Positions 4,506-35,767 of a stretch of DNA of 64,000 nt are shown piece after piece. The notes below the pieces were generated by a model. It was not told the DNA's origin, ran no database searches, and worked only from the letters and a program-made list of their open reading frames with translations. The position numbers were made by a program, and so were the translations under genes. Each line of letters opens with the position of its first letter. Position 1 is the stretch's first letter. This DNA comes from Patescibacteria group bacterium (GTDB lineage: Bacteria > Patescibacteriota > Patescibacteriia > Patescibacteriales > WJLG01), in NCBI GenBank assembly GCA_028707065.1, contig JAQTUZ010000002.1:70513-134512 (forward strand), read 5' to 3'.

Positions 4506-5390
4506 ATGAATAATATTATTGCCAGACAAAATCAACCCGATCAGATTAATAGATTGGCCGCCCAAAGGTATCTATATTCTAAAGCGAAAAATTTTTTTCT
4601 TGCTCGGCTGTTTTTATCCCTCGTGTTTGCAATCATCGCTCCAATTTTAATGTTAGAATTTAAAAATACCCAATATTATATCGCCATATCCGCAGTTTTT
4701 TATTTGTTTGTTGACTTTTTCTTTTTAAGAAGAGTTGAGAATTCTGATAGAAAAAATGCGGCAAAAATTCAAGAAAGTTTTGATTTGGAATTATTTGAAC
4801 TGCCGTGGAACGATATAGTTGCTGGGAATAAAATTGAAGAAGAGAAAGTACTTTCGTCCTCGAAAAAGTATAAGAAAAAAGTGAAAAATAATTTGGCAAA
4901 TTTGTATGATTGGTATTCTAAAGAAATAGGAGATATTGATCTTCTGCCCGCGGTTGCCATTTGCCAGCGGACAAACGTGTATTGGGACGTGTCTTTGCGA
5001 GAGAAGCTTTTTTGGTCAATTATGGCCATAATTTTATTGTTAAGCTTCGTATTATTTTTTTGGGGCAAAAATTCAATAGTGTTTTTATTTTCAGTTCTTC
5101 CTTTTTACGAAGTTATCATTGATTATGCGGCATCGCAGTATTCTTCGGTAGGCAGAATTAAGGAACTTAAAAATAAAATTGAAGAATTACTGGAAAAGCT
5201 ACCTGAATTTAAAAATATCAACAGTGGCATAAAAGGCAGTCTAAGAGCAATTCAGGATCAGCTTTTTAGACACAGGGAGTCGTGTTCGTTTGTTCCAGAT
5301 TGGTTTTATAAAATTTTTAGAGACAGACAGGAGGAGGAGATGAATTATTGTGCGAAACATTATGTTGATAAATTCCTAAGTAAAGTGTAG
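4506..5390 (+). CDS. four-TM effector, SMODS-associated S-4TM/SLATT-like
   Basis: ATG at 4506 is in frame within ORF 4326..5390, 4 nt after the NTase stop. Two pairs of hydrophobic helices (LFLSLVFAIIAPILML, YYIAISAVFYLFVDFFFL, LFWSIMAIILLLSFVLFFW, IVFLFSVLPFYEVII) precede a charged C-terminal tail. Confidence 0.6.
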   Translation: MNNIIARQNQPDQINRLAAQRYLYSKAKNFFLARLFLSLVFAIIAPILMLEFKNTQYYIAISAVFYLFVDFFFLRRVENSDRKNAAKIQESFDLELFELPWNDIVAGNKIEEEKVLSSSKKYKKKVKNNLANLYDWYSKEIGDIDLLPAVAICQRTNVYWDVSLREKLFWSIMAIILLLSFVLFFWGKNSIVFLFSVLPFYEVIIDYAASQYSSVGRIKELKNKIEELLEKLPEFKNINSGIKGSLRAIQDQLFRHRESCSFVPDWFYKIFRDRQEEEMNYCAKHYVDKFLSKV

Positions 5391-26393: not shown

Positions 26394-26464
26394 GCGGGGT
26401 TCGTATAGTGGTAGTACAGGGGTCTCCAAAACCTCTAGCGTGGGTCCGATTCCTACACCCCGTG
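26394..26464 (+). tRNA. tRNA-Trp (anticodon CCA), canonical type I
   Basis: Hand fold: acceptor GCGGGGT/ACCCCGT (G1-U72 wobble), anticodon arm GGGGT-CTCCAAA-ACCTC, short variable loop, T arm GTGGG-TCCGATT-CCTAC, discriminator G73. Confidence 0.85.
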
Positions 26465-26578
26465 CGTATATAAAATCATGTAAAGCGACCCGAAGGCCGA
26501 TTATTTTCGGGTTCCAGACCCAGACAGGTAAAAGTTTTTTGGATAGAAAATTTTAATTTTAAGATTAGATTTTTTTAT

Positions 26579-27808
26579 ATGGCCTATAAGGACGTGTCTG
26601 ACGACGCAATAAATTCAATAGCAAAATTTATTAATCAAAAGAGTAACAAGAATTACTCTATTCCTGTCGTTGGAGACGAGAACAATCCAGAGGTTCCACA
26701 TATTTTTGAAATAATTCCGTTTAATGAAATCGATAAAACTTCAAGTAAATTTTATGCAATAGACGGAAGTTATAATTCTCAAGAATTCTATAACGGTATG
26801 TGTATTGCGGTGTACGCCGCTGGGTATGTTTGCTATAAAGATGGAAAGCAGGTTTGTTTGAATGGGTTAGACGATCCAGTGATATTGGGAAAATCCTACT
26901 TTCCTGAAAGAGTTTTGGTTATAAATGATGAGGATAAGGAACTGATATATGATGAGTTGTTTTCTCTGGATCCGGTCAAGAAGTTAATTGCTTTTTTTGG
27001 GGATCCTGTTAGGGATATTTTTGCGTATGACAAAAAGGCTGTTTGTACCACAACATCAGCATTACTATCTTTTTGCCAGAGCGTTCTTGAATTGGCACTC
27101 ATATATGAAATTGCAAATCTTAAAACCACAGAAGTTGGCGACTTTATTTTACGAGATGGCACTTTAAGACCGATAGATGTTAAGCAAAAGTATTCTGTCA
27201 TGTTGGGAGAATATTTAAAGAAAAAAGGAATTATTATTGTTGCCATAACAAAAAATTCTGGAATTAAGATGGAGCTCTCATATACTTTCAAACAAATTGA
27301 TACATATCTTCAAGATAAATTAAAGCCGACATACTCATTTAAAAACCAAGATTCTAAATGTCAAAAACTTTGTTGTTGGTTTGAAGTTCCCACGACAGTT
27401 CTTTCCAGCGCATATGGTCAAATGTATATAAAAAAGGAGCTTACGGGCGGAAGAGGTTTTGGTTTGTTTTTTGTAGCTAGACTGGATTACGTTGAAAAAT
27501 TACAGAATTACGATTGGCTCGTTGTCGACGTTAATATCTTTGATGCAATTCCTGGAATCAAAACATTTGATATTAAACGAGACATTTTATTTTTAGAGAG
27601 TCTTTTTAAAGAGCTTACTCGTCTTACCCAAGAACATTATATTCTTGGGTATCCTTATCCTTTAGTAGAGGTGCACAATTTTATCACTCTTAAAAAGACA
27701 TTTAAAGATGAAATAATAAAGAGGGTAAAGTTTGCGTTATACGGCAATCAGCAAATGGATAATGTTGATATTGAAAATATATTTTTAGATATACACGATC
27801 GTTTTTAA
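26579..27808 (+). CDS. NurA-like nuclease
   Basis: FYAIDGSYN, ILRDGTLRP and VAITKNSGIK match the conserved DGS / DG(T/S)L / K.S strands of NurA. It sits immediately upstream of a HerA-like ATPase. Confidence 0.65.
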   Translation: MAYKDVSDDAINSIAKFINQKSNKNYSIPVVGDENNPEVPHIFEIIPFNEIDKTSSKFYAIDGSYNSQEFYNGMCIAVYAAGYVCYKDGKQVCLNGLDDPVILGKSYFPERVLVINDEDKELIYDELFSLDPVKKLIAFFGDPVRDIFAYDKKAVCTTTSALLSFCQSVLELALIYEIANLKTTEVGDFILRDGTLRPIDVKQKYSVMLGEYLKKKGIIIVAITKNSGIKMELSYTFKQIDTYLQDKLKPTYSFKNQDSKCQKLCCWFEVPTTVLSSAYGQMYIKKELTGGRGFGLFFVARLDYVEKLQNYDWLVVDVNIFDAIPGIKTFDIKRDILFLESLFKELTRLTQEHYILGYPYPLVEVHNFITLKKTFKDEIIKRVKFALYGNQQMDNVDIENIFLDIHDRF

Positions 27809-27825
27809 TAATTTAATATAAAAAT

Positions 27826-29487
27826 ATGATAAGTAAGGAAAATTTCGGAGTTTTGTATGGGCAAAAAACCACAGAAGATGCTCTGCTTATTTACTCATCT
27901 TATGCTGATTCTAAAGCAAGTCCTCAAACTGGTGATTTTATTGTTTTGGCGCCGAAGGATGAGAGCGGGATAAAGTTTCTCTCAAGAGTTGATGCAGAAA
28001 TTTACGACGAGGATCCGATTTTTAAATCTCAGGATAAGACGCTTATCGCGGTTCACTATGCCCGAATTGCAGAGCGTGAGCTTTCCGAAAGAGATAAGCA
28101 AAAAATTTTTAGCTATACGTATAAAGTTAAAATTTTGGGTACGTTCACTAACAATGGAGGCGGTATAGATTTTACAACCGCCGTAAGAAAGCTCCCCACG
28201 GTTTCGTATCATGCCCGACATCTTTTACCGGAAGAAATTAAATATATTTTAAATAAGGATAATCAACAGGAAGGTAGCCAACCATCAGCTTTAGGATATC
28301 TTTGTATCGGTGATTCCGAACAAAAGGAAAAGGGTGAAATATTTTTCGATATCAATAAACTTTGTAAAAAAAGAACAATGGTCTTTGCTCAATCTGGTTT
28401 CGGTAAGACAAACTTGGTTAAAACCTTGATTTATCATGCTATAGGTGATACTGGCTACGGGAAGCTTGTCTTCGATTTAAACGGAGAATATGCTTTAAAA
28501 AGTCAAAAGACAAATGGTCTCGGCGATATTAATGAGCAGAAAATAAAAGACAATCTAGTTGTGTATACTGATAAGTCAATTCCAGTAGAGTACAATGGTC
28601 GTTTTATTGCTGGTGGAAAAGTCGCCTTAAACATGTATAAGAATTTATCCGTAGGTGATGTGCTAAATTTTACTACTGGTTTTTCTGATGTAATGAAATC
28701 TTTTCTTATTTATTTGAACGATGGTGCTGGAAATTTTATGGAAAAGATTGAAGATTATGCCAGTACTCCACAAAATTTATATAAAGATTTCCCTGATTTT
28801 TGGGGTCAAGAGAAGTCGGATAAAAAAACAGGAGAATTTAAAGATGATGCTAAAGCACGTCCTACAATAATGGGCATTAGAAAAAGAATTGGTTTTCTTT
28901 TGGATGAGAAGGGTGGCTTGCATTCTAATTCGTCAACTTTAGTGGAGGATGTTTGTAAATATTTACGAGAAGGAAAAACTGTTGTATTGGATCTTTCAAT
29001 GAAAGATGACACCGAATCAAGTATTATTTCTACAATTATTGTGCGTAAAATATTCGAGATTAATAAAGCTAGTTTTACAACGGAAGAGGATATCGGCGAG
29101 CCAATTCCTTGCGTTATATTTGTTGAAGAGGCGCAAAATGTTTTATCGGAAGAATTCGTGAAATCAAATGCTAATCCTTTTGTGCGTATTGCAAAAGAAG
29201 GAAGAAAATTTGGAATCGGATTAGTCGGCATTACTCAGAGGCCATCGGCAATTTCTGAAGAAATAAGAACTCAGGCTGATAATTTTTTTGCATTTCACAT
29301 GGGGAATAGTGATGATATACGTGCGCTAGTCAAATCTAATTCTAATTATGATGGTGTCATTGCTAAATTTATTCAAAGCGAAACAATCCCCGGTAATTTG
29401 TACATGGTTTCTTCTACACAGGCGTTTGTTCTGCCCATCCGAGTATATGAATTTGAGAAAATGATAAAAACAAAACTATACAAATAG
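27826..29487 (+). CDS. HerA/DUF87-type (FtsK-HerA superfamily) ATPase
   Basis: Walker A AQSGFGKTN, Walker B CVIFVEEAQN, EGRKFGIGLVGITQRPSAIS. Confidence 0.8.
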   Translation: MISKENFGVLYGQKTTEDALLIYSSYADSKASPQTGDFIVLAPKDESGIKFLSRVDAEIYDEDPIFKSQDKTLIAVHYARIAERELSERDKQKIFSYTYKVKILGTFTNNGGGIDFTTAVRKLPTVSYHARHLLPEEIKYILNKDNQQEGSQPSALGYLCIGDSEQKEKGEIFFDINKLCKKRTMVFAQSGFGKTNLVKTLIYHAIGDTGYGKLVFDLNGEYALKSQKTNGLGDINEQKIKDNLVVYTDKSIPVEYNGRFIAGGKVALNMYKNLSVGDVLNFTTGFSDVMKSFLIYLNDGAGNFMEKIEDYASTPQNLYKDFPDFWGQEKSDKKTGEFKDDAKARPTIMGIRKRIGFLLDEKGGLHSNSSTLVEDVCKYLREGKTVVLDLSMKDDTESSIISTIIVRKIFEINKASFTTEEDIGEPIPCVIFVEEAQNVLSEEFVKSNANPFVRIAKEGRKFGIGLVGITQRPSAISEEIRTQADNFFAFHMGNSDDIRALVKSNSNYDGVIAKFIQSETIPGNLYMVSSTQAFVLPIRVYEFEKMIKTKLYK

Positions 29488-29492
29488 ATAAA

Positions 29493-30704
29493 ATGTTACA
29501 ACTTGATGTAAAAAAGAAAATAAATTTAGATACTCTTTTTGAAGACTTAGCCCAAAAAGACAATCTTGTTCTTGAGGAAAAAGTTAAACTCTTGATTTTG
29601 AGGGATCTTTTACGTTTAAATTGGAAAATAGATTTTGATAAAAACAAGATTGTTATTGCCCCTCCTGAGAATTATGATAAGGAGACTGTTCGTCTTGCCA
29701 TGTCTCACAAACGTAAAGAGTCAATTGGTGATAATGCCGAATGGATAAGAAACAATATTGAATTTGCTAGAAATAATCTTGCGGATGGGAAAGATGTTTT
29801 AAGGTCAAAGATAAAACCAATAATTGAGGTATGTGAATCTCCTAGACAACACGATTTATTTAGACTGTATCGGTATTATTGGTCATCTGCTCATAGTGAA
29901 TATGTTGGCAGAAGGATAAAATTAATTATAAGAGACGGTGGTTTGCCCAATAAGCCAGTTATAGGAATAGCTGCTTTAGGTAGTCCAATTATTCATATTC
30001 CTGATCGTGATAATTGGATAGGTTGGGATAAAAATTTAAGAACAAAAAATCTTATTTATGCAATGGATGCATATGTTATAGGTGCGCTGCCTCCTTATAA
30101 TTATTTATTAGGCGGCAAACTCGTTTCTTATGTTTTAGCGTCCAACGAGGTTAGAAAGATATATAAAGATAAGTATAAAAATAAAATTACTTTAATTGAC
30201 AAAAAGAAAGCGAGTGATTTGGTATGTATTTTTACTACCAGCTTGTATGGTAAGAGTGCTCAGTATAATCGGGTAAAATATAAAAGTAAATTACTCTATA
30301 TGCCGATAGGGGAGACGAGGGGTTTTGGAACTCTACATTTATCTAGCGAAACTTTAGATGCAATGTTGGAATTATTGTTTTCAAAAGGAATTTTTGTAAC
30401 AAATAAATTTGGTGATGGTCCAAGTTGGAGCATGAGAGTTATTAGGACGGTGGGGGACATGCTTAATTTCGATTCTGATTTTCTTCTTAGGCATTCTTTT
30501 AAGAGAGGAATTTATGTTGTTCGGCTCGCGAGTAATTTTCGTAATTTTTTAAATGGTAAAGACAAAAAACCAAAATATTATAACTATTCGCTTAAAAATT
30601 TAGTTTCTTTTTGGAAAAAACGTTGGTTTAAAAATAGAAAGCAGAATATTGATGTTATTCAAAAGGTTGAAGCTTTTAATAAATCCGATTTTAATATTCT
30701 TTAA
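29493..30704 (+). CDS. DUF4338 (Druantia DruA)-like protein
   Basis: LYRYYWSSAHSEYVGRRIKLIIR...IGIAALGSPIIHIPDRDNWIGW...NLIYAMDAYVIGALPPYN..LGGKLVSYVLA matches, from memory, the YHYLG...RD.WIGW...N..R.L.LP core. It needs HMM confirmation. Confidence 0.55.
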   Translation: MLQLDVKKKINLDTLFEDLAQKDNLVLEEKVKLLILRDLLRLNWKIDFDKNKIVIAPPENYDKETVRLAMSHKRKESIGDNAEWIRNNIEFARNNLADGKDVLRSKIKPIIEVCESPRQHDLFRLYRYYWSSAHSEYVGRRIKLIIRDGGLPNKPVIGIAALGSPIIHIPDRDNWIGWDKNLRTKNLIYAMDAYVIGALPPYNYLLGGKLVSYVLASNEVRKIYKDKYKNKITLIDKKKASDLVCIFTTSLYGKSAQYNRVKYKSKLLYMPIGETRGFGTLHLSSETLDAMLELLFSKGIFVTNKFGDGPSWSMRVIRTVGDMLNFDSDFLLRHSFKRGIYVVRLASNFRNFLNGKDKKPKYYNYSLKNLVSFWKKRWFKNRKQNIDVIQKVEAFNKSDFNIL

Positions 30705-30748
30705 AACTGTAGGTTAAATGACAAGATAATCAAGGACAAGCTAAATAT

Positions 30749-31657
30749 ATGGATATATCACAGGCAAAGGGTTATCTCTTTGAGTATGTAGTCCAAAATT
30801 TATTAAAAAAATCTGGTTACGTGAAAGTGAGGATGGCAAATATAAGAGGCAGGGGTGGCGATCATCAAATAGACGCCTATGGCTTATTATCAATTCCAAC
30901 GCCTTTTATTTATCCAATAAGATTGATATGTGAAGCTAAAAATTACGGAGATAAAATTGGATTAGGAAAAATCAGGGATTTTGTTGGAGTAATGAAGGAT
31001 ATTTCGGAAAAATATACTACTCGAAAAAATGGCAAATATGAAAGATTTTCTGACTCCGGTTGCTATTTTTCAACAAAGGGTTTCACGATGGACGCTCAAA
31101 AATATGCATGGGCTCAAAATATTTTTTTGGTCTCTCATAATGGTATTGATAGATCTAATGAGATAGTAAAAGTTATTGATGAATTTTTATCTAGCAATCA
31201 GTTTGATGGTTTGAACAAGGGAGGGTTGATAGAAAGGTTTAAAGTATTTTTTGAAAGAAGATTTGACGATTTAGCAATTTCTTTCACGGTCGGTATTGTA
31301 AATGGTAAATATCCAACAGTAATTGTTGGCAATAAGGGGTTGGTCGATAAAATAAAGCAATTTTTGCCGTCTGATTCCGATTCTTTTGGGGCGACAAAAA
31401 CATCGCGAGAGTGGAATGAAACTGATACATATTTTAATGTTTTTATAAATGAATTAGGGGAGGAAATAAAGGTTTCAGTCCCTAATTTCATAGCTAAACA
31501 TATTGTAAATAAGATAGATAGGTCAAGGCCTGGTAATAAGATATTTTATATAGACGTGCCAGTGCTATCTAAAATAAGGCGTTTTGTTACTATTGATGTT
31601 TCATTGGGTGAATTTGAAACTGCGGATTATTTGGATAAATTGAGAAGGGATTCATAG
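30749..31657 (+). CDS. Mrr-like PD-(D/E)xK restriction endonuclease domain protein with unknown C-terminal half
   Basis: GYLFEYVVQNLLKKSGY, GGDHQIDAYG, LICEAKNYGDKIGLGKIRDFVG, GCYFSTKGFTMDAQKYA. Confidence 0.7.
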   Translation: MDISQAKGYLFEYVVQNLLKKSGYVKVRMANIRGRGGDHQIDAYGLLSIPTPFIYPIRLICEAKNYGDKIGLGKIRDFVGVMKDISEKYTTRKNGKYERFSDSGCYFSTKGFTMDAQKYAWAQNIFLVSHNGIDRSNEIVKVIDEFLSSNQFDGLNKGGLIERFKVFFERRFDDLAISFTVGIVNGKYPTVIVGNKGLVDKIKQFLPSDSDSFGATKTSREWNETDTYFNVFINELGEEIKVSVPNFIAKHIVNKIDRSRPGNKIFYIDVPVLSKIRRFVTIDVSLGEFETADYLDKLRRDS

Positions 31658-31776
31658 TGGCCCAGGGCCATATAGTGTCCCATTTGTCCCATTTAGTCTG
31701 CCCCATATGCCGTATAAAATATCATTGAATAATGCCGAAACTACTTGTATAATGTAATATAGACCCGTACGTGGTG

Positions 31777-31820
31777 CTGAAAATAAAAATGCTGGCTTGC
31801 GCCAGTATTTTTATTTTCAG
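31777..31820 (+). terminator. 20-bp AT-rich hairpin after the four-gene cassette
   Basis: ctgaaaataaaaatgctggc / ttgc / gccagtatttttattttcag (one mismatch). Confidence 0.65.
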
Positions 31821-31887
31821 TATCGAGGAGAATGGAATCGGACTGGCCGTGAGCGAACGCGGAATTCCCTCTATCCCCGTGAATTAG
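31821..31887. other. short GC-rich element with a tRNA-Trp-3'-end-like terminus
   Basis: gaggagaatggaatcgg...cggaattccctctatccccgtg. The end resembles tRNA-Trp ccgattcctacaccccgtg. Confidence 0.4.
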
Positions 31888-31890
31888 ATA

Positions 31891-31916
31891 ATATCGCCTC
31901 ATTAGCGATATTTTTT
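31891..31916 (+). terminator. hairpin plus T-run
   Basis: atatcgc / ctcatta / gcgatat followed by tttttt. Confidence 0.5.
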
Positions 31917-31958: not shown

Positions 31959-31995
31959 TAAAAAAACCGCCCGAATGGTTTTGGCCATTGGGCGG
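31959..31995 (-). terminator. rho-independent terminator of the RT gene
   Basis: The minus strand reads ccgcccaatggcc aaaa ccattcgggcgg ttttttt. Confidence 0.65.
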
Positions 31996-32035: not shown

Positions 32036-33085
32036 TCAAGTTCCGATCATTGCCAGAAGTTTTTCATAAGGCCGTCGAATTTGCTGCGGTAGGCCCATTT
32101 TTTTGTAAACCGGTTTCATTGAAGCCACCAGACCTAAAGCCCGGGGCCTTAACTCCGGTTTGGATATTGCCAAATGCAATAAGGCTCTGGCCAGTCTCCG
32201 CTTTTTCTTCGGACAGGTAATGCCGCCCTGGGTAATGAAACTGGTCAATCTCAGGCCGGTAAGCATAACTTGGCCGTGCTTCTTGTGCTGATAGGAAGTT
32301 TTTTGGGGATTGACCCGAAAACCCGATTGCTCCACGACCGTCACCAATTCCTTCCTTATTCCTTCAGGGATCGGCAGGGCCGAAGAAACCGCGATATTGT
32401 CGACATAGCAGGAAATCTTAAAATCTTCAGATTTGCCGAGTCGCGAAAGAAAAGTGGTCAGCCAGCTTCCATAAAGGGCGAGGGCGAAAAGCAGCGGAGC
32501 GGTTGGAGTCCCTTGAGGAACGATTCCGTCAGTCGTGGTCAGCTGTAAAATTAACTTGACCAAGCCGCGAAAGTCAGCCTCAAATTCAGACCAGTCGCTC
32601 CCCGCCAAAATCATTTTTCCCACCGAAGTGTTGTTCAAAAAGATATCTGACGTGTCCATCGCGTACGATGTAAATGCCGTCTCCAGCCAAAACGCCCGGT
32701 CGATAATCCGGCGCAGGAGATGTTCCCGCAAAGCCTTTAGATCTACGGACGGAAAAGCATTCTGCAGATCAAGCTGGTAAAACCAATAAGATGCGCTATG
32801 CTTTCGGGCGTGATCAATGTAGGAGCCGCTTCCTTTTCTTAAGCCGAAAATAAAATTATTATAATGCCGCGCCAGAGGGAAACAAAGACGGCTTAAGCAC
32901 CGCTGTCTCAATATTCTTTGCAAGAGATGAAGCGGCGAGGCGGGAAGATAAACTTTTCTCGGAGTATTGTTTTTTCTCGGCAGCTCTTTGATCGTGTAAT
33001 TTCCCACGCAAGCCAGAGCCTCTTCGATTAACGATCGGTCGGTTTGAATGATTTCGGATAAAAAAACGATCGGATCAATATTCAT
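32036..33085 (-). CDS. retron-type reverse transcriptase
   Basis: RT motifs PRKVYLPASPLHLLQRIL, FGLRKGSGSYIDHARKH (NAxxH-like), YQLDLQNAFPSV, VPQGTPTAPLLF, YVDNIAVSS (YxDD variant), GFRVNPQKT, VMLTGLRLT (VTG-like). AGGAGG RBS. Confidence 0.8.
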   Translation of the reverse strand: MNIDPIVFLSEIIQTDRSLIEEALACVGNYTIKELPRKNNTPRKVYLPASPLHLLQRILRQRCLSRLCFPLARHYNNFIFGLRKGSGSYIDHARKHSASYWFYQLDLQNAFPSVDLKALREHLLRRIIDRAFWLETAFTSYAMDTSDIFLNNTSVGKMILAGSDWSEFEADFRGLVKLILQLTTTDGIVPQGTPTAPLLFALALYGSWLTTFLSRLGKSEDFKISCYVDNIAVSSALPIPEGIRKELVTVVEQSGFRVNPQKTSYQHKKHGQVMLTGLRLTSFITQGGITCPKKKRRLARALLHLAISKPELRPRALGLVASMKPVYKKMGLPQQIRRPYEKLLAMIGT

Positions 33086-33120
33086 GTTGTCCTCCTCTAT
33101 ATTATTTTATTGTAAAGATC

Positions 33121-33310
33121 AAAAAAAGGGGGCAGCAGAAGGAGTTTTCCCCTTCTGCCGCAGCTTCCATGCTGAAGAAGTTGTCCTTGAAACTACCAGC
33201 TGCCAGATACTGACAGCCGCCGCCAGGTATGCCAGCAGAGAGGTCCGCCAGCTGCATATACTATGAATAGTACATGATACCTATTCGCAGTATTCAAGCT
33301 ACGTGCCCCA
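33121..33310 (-). ncRNA. candidate retron msr-msd-like non-coding RNA
   Basis: It lies between a strong minus-strand promoter and the RT start. It is GC-rich and holds several 6-10-bp stems. The boundaries are approximate. Confidence 0.3.
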
Positions 33311-33314
33311 CTCG

Positions 33315-33343
33315 ATATTATGGCAAAAAAATCTTTTTGTAAA
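33315..33343 (-). promoter_or_regulatory. sigma70-type promoter upstream of the RT leader
   Basis: The minus strand reads TTTACA-N17-TAATAT. Confidence 0.5.
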
Positions 33344-33447
33344 GAGTCGCTTCTCTTTGGTCTTGCCGCAGTTTTGCCTTGGATTGCGGCAAAATGCGAT
33401 TGTCGGCCGTCGCAGTCCGCGCTGATCCTGCGACGGAACCAAGCCAA

Positions 33448-33480
33448 CAAAAAAACATCCGCCCGAGCGGATGTTTTTTT
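33448..33480. terminator. bidirectional terminator
   Basis: aaaaaaa catccgc ccga gcggatg ttttttt. Confidence 0.7.
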
Positions 33481-33490
33481 GAATGGATAT

Positions 33491-35053: not shown

Positions 35054-35767
35054 TTATCCTTTGGCGATGACCAGTCCCCAAACTTTGCCGGCGCCGGCGG
35101 ATTTTAAGATCCCGGCGGCTTCATTGAGAGTCGAGCCGGTAGTGGCCACATCGTCAACTAAAAGAATTTTTTTTCCGGATAGATTTTCGCCGCTCGGCGC
35201 AAAACAGCCCGTGATATTTTGTCTTCTGGCCGCCCCGTCCAATTTGGCTTGGGGCATTTTATGTTTGACGCGGATCAGAGTGTCTTGACAGGCAAGACTG
35301 GCGCGTTTGGCAAAATGGTTAGCGATTATTTCCGCCTGGTTGAAGCCGCGCCAATTGTATCTTTTCCGATGCAAGGGGATCGGGGTGACGATAAATTTCC
35401 GCAAATTGATATTTTTTAATTTTTCTTCGGCCGCCAATTTTTCCAGATAGCGGCCGGCGATCGCGGCCAGCACCTCGCCCAATTCGCGGGCAAAAGAATA
35501 TTTTAATTTTTTTATCAGTTCGTTGACGACGCGGTCGGAGTAATCGGCGCAAACAAAAACGCCGTCCAAATTATAATTGGCGGCGCAAGCCGGACAAGTC
35601 GATCCGAAGGAATTATCTTTACCGCAGAAAAAGCAAGCGGTATTTCTTCCCAACGGCAGTTTTAGCAAGCAATCCGGGCAAAGCCAGACGTCCTCCTTGC
35701 CGCAGCCGGCGCATTCGACAGGAAAAAGTAAATTTAACAATTTTGATTTTATTGTTTTGTCATCCAT
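35054..35767 (-). CDS. comFC: ComF family protein (phosphoribosyltransferase-type)
   Basis: N-terminal CxxC...CxxC zinc motifs and the PRTase loop ILLVDDVATTGSTL. Confidence 0.8.
   Translation of the reverse strand: MDDKTIKSKLLNLLFPVECAGCGKEDVWLCPDCLLKLPLGRNTACFFCGKDNSFGSTCPACAANYNLDGVFVCADYSDRVVNELIKKLKYSFARELGEVLAAIAGRYLEKLAAEEKLKNINLRKFIVTPIPLHRKRYNWRGFNQAEIIANHFAKRASLACQDTLIRVKHKMPQAKLDGAARRQNITGCFAPSGENLSGKKILLVDDVATTGSTLNEAAGILKSAGAGKVWGLVIAKG

Follow-up and report, generated by a model that had tools for sequence, protein, structure and literature searches.

A retron-like reverse transcriptase with a variant active site and its conserved leader RNA: a probable two-part chromosomal module in Patescibacteria

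A 64,000-nucleotide (nt) stretch of contig JAQTUZ010000002.1 from a Patescibacteria group bacterium (GCA_028707065.1, positions 70,513 to 134,512; hereafter the window) carries on its minus strand a gene for a reverse transcriptase (RT), directly preceded by a structured untranslated leader RNA. On sequence and predicted fold, we assign the RT to a distinct clade within the retron RT radiation, the members of which mostly have YxDN or YxDG in place of the YxDD catalytic box. The leader is a real, conserved RNA that is tied to the RT, and together they appear to constitute a so far undescribed retron-like family outside every described retron type. This chromosomal module has no relation to the NurA/HerA/DruA/Mrr gene island that adjoins it in the window. 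We consider it probable that the RT and RNA form a self-contained, orphan, two-part retron-like module that makes a short complementary DNA (cDNA). The coordinates of all features are given in Table 1.

The RT open reading frame (ORF) is intact, with an ATG start and a ribosome-binding site (RBS) ahead of it, and the encoded 349-amino acid (aa) protein matches Pfam RVT_1 (1.2e-15). It is identical to NCBI MDD4901770.1, from a Patescibacteria group metagenome-assembled genome (MAG; 139-kb contig), where it is annotated only as “reverse transcriptase domain-containing protein.” The translation contains LDLQNAFPS (motif A), SYIDHARKH, PQGTPTAP (motif B), YVDN (motif C, residues 227–230), and MLTGL. 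An initial annotation of the window, made from the sequence, had described a 349-aa minus-strand RT ORF of retron type with YVDN, IDHARKH, and MLTGLRL signatures, and each of these is borne out here; its estimate of about 65 residues inserted between motifs A and B was too high, as the insertion measures ~35–40 aa against Ec86 and the shortest members of the family, and differs in length among relatives. A Pfam scan of seven longer clade members (P0003, P0006, P0008, P0013, P0035, P0039, and the outlying P0101) found no fused domain; the scan also took in three proteins from outside the clade (P0040, P0093, and the kinase-fused P0133), and the sole extra domain recovered was the protein kinase of P0133, so that a fused effector domain in the longer members was rejected.

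Model, profile, and fold comparisons agree in placing the RT nearest to retron RTs, and in none of them did it cluster with the group II, Abi, or UG RTs that the initial annotation had named as possible outcomes. Of the 25 best PADLOC models for the window RT, 24 are retron RTs and the 25th is a CRISPR-associated RT, with no UG, Abi, or DRT model among them; the top scores are those of RT_VI (89.7 bits), RT_X (81.3 bits), and RT_III-A (80.8 bits), and retron RT models are likewise on top for seven relatives. Retron models also rank first in NCBIfam, namely St85 (69 bits; cut-off 235), TIR (53 bits; cut-off 600), and Ec67 (48 bits; cut-off 450). A profile built from 41 family members and searched against all PDB sequences recovered the Ec86 RT first (1.7e-32), followed by Ec67, Ec83, Ec78, and Kva2, with the first non-retron chains being group II intron maturase RT domains (1.5e-12) and then DRT1 (1.7e-5). 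Using an AlphaFold (AF2) model of moderate quality (pLDDT 72.9, pTM 0.64), Foldseek ranks 1–17 were all occupied by retron RTs (E-values 6e-13 to 3e-7), with G2L4, group II, Abi-P2, DRT9, UG15, and DRT2 structures ranked below all of them (1e-5 to 1e-6 for the DRT2/DRT9-type structures).

Regions X and Y are signatures of retron RTs (Mestre et al., 2020; PMC7736814), and both are present. Region X reads SYIDHARKH in the window RT and S-Y-x-x-H-A-x-x-H in the family, with N replaced by H (H96 invariant, H92 nearly so); region Y reads MLTGL in the window RT and (I/V/L)(T/C)G in the family (e.g., ITG, ICG, VTG), with G277 invariant. However, retron models score only 50–145 bits across the window RT and its relatives, against curated cut-offs of 235–600 bits, while the family’s own profile scores clade members from 588 down to ~200 bits. 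The RT reaches the threshold of no retron type, and several PADLOC types lie within 10 bits of the best score; judged by these models, it fits none of the 13 retron types.

The YVDN box appears to be a trait of the clade rather than a private defect of the window RT. A word-index search had found only four relatives, whereas an exhaustive hidden Markov model (HMM) search recovered 168 representatives below 1e-30. In a neighbor-joining tree of 136 of the best HMM matches, which is a crude tree, a single clade of 54 representatives comprises 36 RTs with YxDN, 13 with YxDG, one with YxDS, one with YxDE, and three with YxDD; in the same tree, the RTs outside this clade comprise 66 with YxDD, 12 with YxDE, and four with YxDN. 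In 25 of the 27 RTs linked to the RNA, the fourth position of the box is occupied by N or G. The retron YADD/YxDD box is absent from the window RT. Acidic residues occur exceptionally within the N/G clade (YVDD in the L104 RT, at 734–1666; YVDE in the L095 RT). Among the weaker HMM matches is a separate group of RTs of ~300 aa (P0105–P0151) with PQGAPTSNA, in which Glu stands for the second Asp (YVDE or YTDE); this group may represent a further lineage whose active site is altered.

The 183-nt leader has a predicted folding energy of -84 kcal/mol (z = -5.4), equalled by none of 200 shuffles. Rfam scans of the leader at gathering thresholds and at a permissive E-value gave no meaningful match. 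A similar leader is already present in the first four relatives, and scans of GTDB genomes and JGI metagenomes extended the family to ~45 loci; an nhmmer profile (E < 1e-5) places the core hairpin upstream of the RT gene, in the same orientation, in 37 loci. When a hand-drawn structure (P1a, P1b, hairpin B, and hairpin C) was laid on a MAFFT alignment of 15 RNAs, 92.9% of positions were paired, against 25–53% in slid controls, with nine pairs showing two-sided changes; RNAalifold independently predicts the same four elements. A covariance model derived from this structure (R1) gave full-length matches in 15 non-seed loci and a partial match in a 16th (L089), so that 30 of 31 RNAs are matched at full length overall. 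In an alignment of the 31 RNAs that was fitted to this model (A6), 93.6% of cells pair (27–50% when slid), with compensatory changes in 20 of 28 pairs. An automatic search for the closing helix chose spurious helices in about one third of RNAs, and boundaries were set by hand.

R1, which was built from L002-type RNAs, gave only a local match in the window, confined to the core hairpin (23 bits); the window RNA carries an insertion of ~40 nt. A second model (R2) was therefore built from 11 homologs closer to the window (L001-type), with the window itself excluded. Its sole significant match in the 64 kb is full length, at 33309–33105 on the minus strand (57.5 bits, E-value 9e-12). These analyses carry out the covariance and fold check on homologous loci that the initial annotation had proposed for the site where an msr-msd RNA would sit, and the RNA found there is conserved, covarying, and structured, with a1/a2-like ends. 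The untranslated segment of about 190 nt that was foreseen is present (183 nt), although it is not markedly GC-rich (~47–49%, with 49% for the leader itself, in a local background of 42–53%).

Complementary a1/a2-like ends enclose the inner structures of the RNA, and compensatory changes occur in 10 of the 13 pairs of P1a and P1b combined. The GGGGCA…TGCCCC repeats recognized earlier form P1a, the conserved outer helix (88.6% paired in the family; two-sided changes in five of seven pairs), which P1b extends inward (94% paired; two-sided changes in five of six pairs). Where the closing duplex ends on its inner side, a G stands opposite a G in all 18 RNAs in which P1b was located automatically. 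The G on the 5′ side (33295) shows at least 90% conservation in the alignment fitted to the model and, from its retron-like position, may serve as the primer; the same G-opposite-G geometry is that of the priming G of Ec86. A variable 5′ domain follows this conserved G and is enlarged in the window RNA. Hairpin C, the more conserved of the two stems singled out in the initial annotation and indeed the most conserved element of the RNA, is 99% paired, with two-sided changes in six of its 10 pairs, and in locus L114 its stem has a wholly different sequence with pairing kept; it is likely the recognition site of the RT. The other stem exists as well, as a lineage-variable inserted hairpin. Between hairpin C and a2 lies a stretch of ~25–35 nt in which local pairing does not exceed 4–5 bp and the sequence is not kept in the family. 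Its retron-like position relative to a2 and its unconserved sequence suggest that, in the window, 33192–33168 may be the template. The U-rich tail that follows the RNA is kept in ~30 loci, even where the RTs are only ~30% identical.

The 5′ strand of P1b (GGGCUAG or GGCUUG) can pair either with its 3′ strand (GUAGCCC or GAAGCC) or with a middle segment (CUAGUC or CAAGCU); in locus L002 the three segments are at 5153–5159, 5264–5270, and 5173–5178, respectively, and in alignment A4 the columns concerned are 16–22, 51–57, and 159–164. Where the 5′ strand is altered, as in L106, L095, and throughout the L001-type, so are both of its partners. The two helices are mutually exclusive and both covary; the window RNA itself is without an obvious middle partner.

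Variation in the RNA was also seen at the margins of the family. The L104 RNA (574–722) is shortened, lacking P1b and the 5′ domain, and two related Paceibacterota loci have a second, weaker copy of the core hairpin ~250–300 nt upstream of the main RNA (L013, 9539–9559; L014, 1993–2013). Three distant relatives with YADD or FADD boxes, one of them from Brennerbacteria, have a longer upstream RNA (~300 nt) that contains a core hairpin resembling that of the family (e.g., GGCGGUCAG...CUGGCCGUUGGGUAA) (L016, 9650–9940; L018, 100–330; L019, 9690–9970); because these RTs retain the second Asp, this RNA type may predate its loss.

The RNA and the RT gene are probably co-transcribed from one promoter. 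The sigma-70-type promoter reported initially is present, and although on its own it is weak (9 of 12 matches, equalled by ~10% of shuffles), a promoter with at least 9 of 12 matches and a -10 box ending 4–9 nt before the RNA start was found in 27 of 27 homologous loci. In most loci the RT start codon lies 26–49 nt after the RNA (a2). The conserved promoter position and RNA-to-start distance indicate a single unit, with a transcript that would start at the closing helix. The gene also has its own terminator, as previously described, in the form of a hairpin followed by T7. Upstream, between the terminator of a 159-aa ORF (~33480–33450) and the RNA promoter, the minus strand at 33345–33490 contains further GC-rich inverted repeats (e.g., TTGCCGCA...TGCGGCAA), for which Rfam gave nothing above noise.

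Table 1. Positions of the RT gene, its leader RNA, and associated features in the 64,000-nt window.
Feature	Position	Strand	Remarks
Sigma-70-type promoter, TTTACA-N17-TAATAT	33315–33343	-	-35 box 33343–33338; -10 box 33320–33315
Conserved structured non-coding RNA, msr-msd-like leader	33128–33310	-	183 nt; closing-helix 5′ end to 3′ end
P1a 5′ strand (a1-like), GGGGCA	33304–33309	-	Pairs with 33134–33129
P1b 5′ strand, CGTAGCTT	33296–33303	-	Extends closing duplex; pairs with 33166–33159
Conserved G after closing duplex, candidate priming (branching) guanosine	33295	-	Opposite G 33167
Core hairpin C, CGGCTGTCAG-TAT-CTGGCAGCTG (GCTGTCAG-tat-CTGGCAGC)	33197–33219	-	Flanks GGCGG (5′) and CUGGUAG (3′) invariant
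Variable, mostly unpaired stretch, candidate msd-like template	33168–33192	-	Between hairpin C and P1b 3′ strand
P1b 3′ strand, AAGCTGCG	33159–33166	-	Preceded by G 33167
Lineage-variable inserted hairpin, GCAGAAGG...CCTTCTGC	33135–33158	-	L001-type relatives only, none in L002-type
P1a 3′ strand, TGCCCC	33129–33134	-	
Terminator/attenuator-like site: inserted hairpin + P1a 3′ strand + T7 (33127–33121)	33121–33158	-	~35 nt before start codon
U-rich conserved tail, GATCTTTACAATAAAA (family uUGUUCUUUUAmAA)	33105–33120	-	Between RNA and RBS
RBS, GAGGAGG	33097–33091	-	5 nt before RT start
RT gene	32036–33085	-	Motif A Asp106 at nt 32770–32768; motif C YVDN at nt 32407–32396
RT intrinsic terminator, CCGCCCAATGG...CCATTCGGGCGG + T7	31960–31995	-	Read from sequence
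Gene cassette	NurA 26579–27808; HerA 27826–29487; DruA/DUF4338 29493–30704; Mrr 30749–31657		Convergent with RT

Based on clustering of all ORFs within ~5 kb of the RNA at 30 non-redundant loci, the RT is the only gene common to all of them. No effector gene in cis is conserved across these loci or present in the window, as the initial annotation had also concluded for the latter. The neighbors are housekeeping genes, including those for MurJ, Mur ligase, penicillin-binding protein, MraW, ArgRS, PheRS, EF-P, and pyrE/pyrF. A phosphoribosyltransferase (PRTase) effector, as in type III-A, was considered and rejected, as the recurrent PRTase-like neighbors are pyrE-like, adjoin or are fused to pyrF, and have no PADLOC match. 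The window has a PRTase gene of its own (35054–35767, minus strand) that does not cluster with these neighbors; it encodes a ComF-family protein (double zinc ribbon and PRTase) with weak PADLOC matches to PsyrT and ShosT via the PRTase domain, and is probably an ordinary competence protein.

In one sub-lineage the module lies between pheS/pheT and pyrE/pyrF in six loci (L002, L011, L095, L106, L112, and L113), and within it RT identity (46–64%) falls in step with PheS identity (65–90%). Because RT identity tracks PheS identity with synteny kept, we infer vertical inheritance under selection in that sub-lineage. The same setting also touches L001, L006, and L109, and pyrE and pyrF are fused in L113. 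The named hosts are nearly all Patescibacteria (Saccharibacteria, Paceibacterota, Parcubacteria, Doudnabacteria, and Brennerbacteria), the exceptions being a single MAG of Omnitrophota and two short contigs that binning assigned to Gammaproteobacteria; for one of the latter (L007), mis-binning is possible, given that its RT and RNA closely resemble those of the Doudnabacteria locus L008. A phage origin was rejected, as 2.9 million IMG/VR viral contigs contain no member of the RT family and no RNA core motif.

The reading that we favor, and hold to be probable, is that of an RT–RNA module operating on retron lines. Transcription from the promoter would yield the ~185-nt RNA and, when it passes a weak terminator-like site, the RT message as well. 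The RT would bind the invariant hairpin C, and the closing duplex of P1a and P1b would place G 33295 beside the 3′ end of the variable stretch, in the manner of retron a1/a2 repeats. Priming on that G, the RT would copy the variable stretch into cDNA, with catalysis by two carboxylates, the Asp of motif A and the first of motif C. If the retron analogy holds, the product would be a largely unstructured cDNA of a few tens of nt, in an RNA–DNA hybrid resembling multicopy single-stranded DNA (msDNA). Since there is no effector in cis, the product may act alone or with a factor encoded elsewhere. A more elaborate version, which we advance only as a tentative conjecture, is that a retron-derived RT–RNA particle has been domesticated in some Patescibacteria as a vertically inherited chromosomal function rather than as toxin-antitoxin-type defense, with a two-carboxylate polymerase, a very short unstructured cDNA copied from a template without an msd hairpin, and a switch between the alternative helices X/X′1 and X/X′2 that gates priming.

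Several observations weigh against the favored reading. The family is rare and patchy, with ~19 loci in 185,579 species genomes in a search limited to one peptide pattern. The priming G of retrons usually stands in an AGC context, whereas here the context is CUAG(C/G/A) or CUUG and the retron-type AGC occurs only in some members. A canonical msd is a variable hairpin 10–50 bp long; the family has no conserved long msd hairpin, and its only long (10-bp) conserved hairpin is, unlike an msd, invariant in sequence. The active fold is uncertain because the P1b 5′ strand also pairs, with covariation, with the middle segment, and the fitting of the 31-RNA alignment to its model favors the modelled structure. 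In the window, the T7 tract of the leader could end most transcripts before the RT gene. Finally, the clade has lost the second Asp of YxDD, a residue that is essential in HIV-1 RT, so that the case for RT activity comes from the other catalytic residues that are kept.

The last of these points leads to the strongest rival explanation, that the YxDN/YxDG clade has lost polymerase activity and that the RT is an RNA-binding subunit of a ribonucleoprotein, with no cDNA made. The second Asp is missing in 50 of the 54 clade members, the site drifting among N, G, S, E, and D, and it is essential in retroviral RTs; the RNA without an msd-type hairpin would also fit an inactive enzyme. Against this, the family keeps the rest of its catalytic apparatus, which would be unexpected of a dead enzyme: D106 of motif A, A110, F111, Q191, G192, Y227, and D229 are invariant, and K262 (motif D) nearly so, among proteins that are ~30% identical. 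Ala110-Phe111 corresponds in position to the dNTP-selecting steric gate of HIV-1 RT (A114-Y115), and natural xDN polymerases, such as the mononegavirus L proteins with GDNQ, are active. Because these residues are kept across such divergent proteins, a working DNA polymerase with the two universal carboxylates is favored; the conservation argues for, rather than proves, catalysis by that pair, and we regard an inactive RT as unlikely.

Ranking below an inactive RT, and on balance improbable, is the explanation that the leader is a purely cis-regulatory 5′ untranslated region that attenuates or autoregulates the RT gene, with the RT copying something other than this RNA. The window would suit it, in that a terminator scan found a site in the leader (13 pairs followed by a T-run), unmentioned in the initial annotation, that puts a terminator-like hairpin and T7 just before the RBS; two mutually exclusive helices sharing one strand are riboswitch-like, and the tail before the RBS is conserved. 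However, about half of the family has no such hairpin, and the closing duplex, the conserved G, and the variable stretch are arranged as in a retron; wherever retron-clade RTs have been tested, the adjacent RNA is the template.

An RT with an RNA and no effector also recalls DRT2 and DRT9, in which the RT would copy the RNA repeatedly (rolling circle or repeat synthesis) into concatemeric cDNA that encodes or constitutes the effector, and the direct repeat-like X′1 and X′2 flank the central part of the RNA. Such a system is very unlikely, in that retron models and structures outscore those of UG/DRT by a wide margin, and the circularized unit between the repeats is stop-free in only 10 of 31 RNAs, with a length that is not conserved modulo 3; a DRT2-like never-ending ORF was rejected on the same two counts.

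The NurA, HerA, DruA/DUF4338, and Mrr genes were named in the initial annotation as the nearest candidates for partners of the RT, and the RT and RNA might then be the sensor arm of a defense system with these proteins as effectors. The cassette is adjacent to and convergent with the RT gene, and its HerA and DruA match defense models. However, the co-occurrence check proposed at that time finds RT loci elsewhere without the four genes, which are present in none of ~30 homologous loci, and the cassette has 32–37% GC, compared with 47–48% for the RT and 42–53% for the flanks. It starts directly after tRNA-Trp (26394–26465), as an island would; no clean direct repeat of the tRNA that might mark an att site was found, just a stretch near 31850–31880 with a weak likeness to the 3′ end of the tRNA. 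The block at 26394–31900 is probably a horizontally acquired defense island, and its low GC, tRNA-Trp border, and absence from other loci suggest that it landed by chance beside the RT gene. The absence of co-occurrence and the differing GC rule out the cassette genes as partners of the RT, and a sensor role for the RT and RNA is thereby rendered highly improbable.

Least probable of all is an RT of a mobile retroelement (group II intron or diversity-generating retroelement, DGR) or of Abi type, for which there is general RT homology only: the group II maturase model TIGR04416 scores 20 bits (cut-off 300) and AbiA 10 bits in NCBIfam, Rfam finds no group II intron RNA or other Rfam family in the window, the NCBIfam and PDB matches include no DGR model or chain (no DGR-specific comparison or template/variable repeat search was made), and the RTs occur as single copies in syntenic chromosomal sites and in none of the viral contigs.

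Retrons are now seen as three-part, toxin/antitoxin-like phage sensors, and their RTs are valued in genome editing for producing DNA inside the cell. The present clade, from an under-studied bacterial radiation (the candidate phyla radiation, CPR), departs from this picture in lacking the second catalytic Asp, in having a compact RNA of new architecture, and in its housekeeping setting, without an effector, in genomes of ~1 Mb. If the RT is active, then a retron-type RT can function with a YxDN/YxDG site, and a small RT (~300–350 aa) with a short scaffold RNA would be available for engineering; if it is inactive, it would be the first RNA-binding pseudo-enzyme known to derive from a retron. 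In both cases, the family offers a tractable case for the function of orphan retrons, and an RNA family new to Rfam.

The known systems closest to the family include canonical retrons such as Retron-Eco1 (Ec86), with which it shares the RT lineage by profile and fold, regions X and Y, and an RNA directly upstream in what is probably one transcription unit. Retron RNAs have terminal a1/a2 repeats, a priming G where a1 ends inward, and a template that begins beside a2 (Mestre et al., 2020; PMC7736814); in the same layout, the family RNA has paired terminal inverted repeats, a conserved G at the inner end of the duplex, and a variable segment beside a2. In contrast, canonical retrons have YADD, their usual catalytic box, together with an msd hairpin and an effector, and reside in prophages or defense islands, whereas the family has YxDN/YxDG, no long msd hairpin, no effector gene, and a place in Patescibacteria housekeeping regions; its two alternative helices sharing one strand are a further difference. 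Types VI, X, and III-A supply the closest PADLOC models, but these matches are weak and non-discriminating, and neither the helix-turn-helix protein of type VI nor the PRTase effector of type III-A adjoins the window RT. Searches of a limited literature collection for retrons in CPR/Patescibacteria or for a YVDN/YIDN/YxDN box found nothing relevant.

DRT2 and DRT9 (UG2 and UG28) are likewise two-component systems that pair an RT with a structured RNA lying upstream, and in them the cDNA itself is the functional product; however, they belong to a separate RT lineage, and the family RNA is without a never-ending reading frame. Orphan retrons without a recurrent accessory gene are known from clade 2 (Retron-Eco5/Ec107) and clade 11, and Ec107 is not prophage-borne and adjoins pyrE (Mestre et al., 2020; PMC7736814); Ec107-like RTs were again reported without accessory modules (Toro, 2026, preprint). 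The family resembles these in having an RT and RNA only, and resembles Ec107 in having a variant catalytic box. Several family loci are also near pyrE/pyrF, which may be coincidence. However, variant retron boxes such as the YCDD of Ec107 keep both Asp residues, and Ec107 makes a 107-nt hairpin msDNA, whereas the family box lacks the second Asp; the RT_Ec107-like model is absent from the 25 best PADLOC matches of the window RT and scores 71–93 bits for relatives, below other retron models. We therefore class the family as a retron-like variant rather than as a described type: it departs from retrons in the YxDD box, the msd hairpin, and the effector, and agrees with them in RT lineage, regions X and Y, the contiguity of RNA and RT gene, and the a1/a2 ends.

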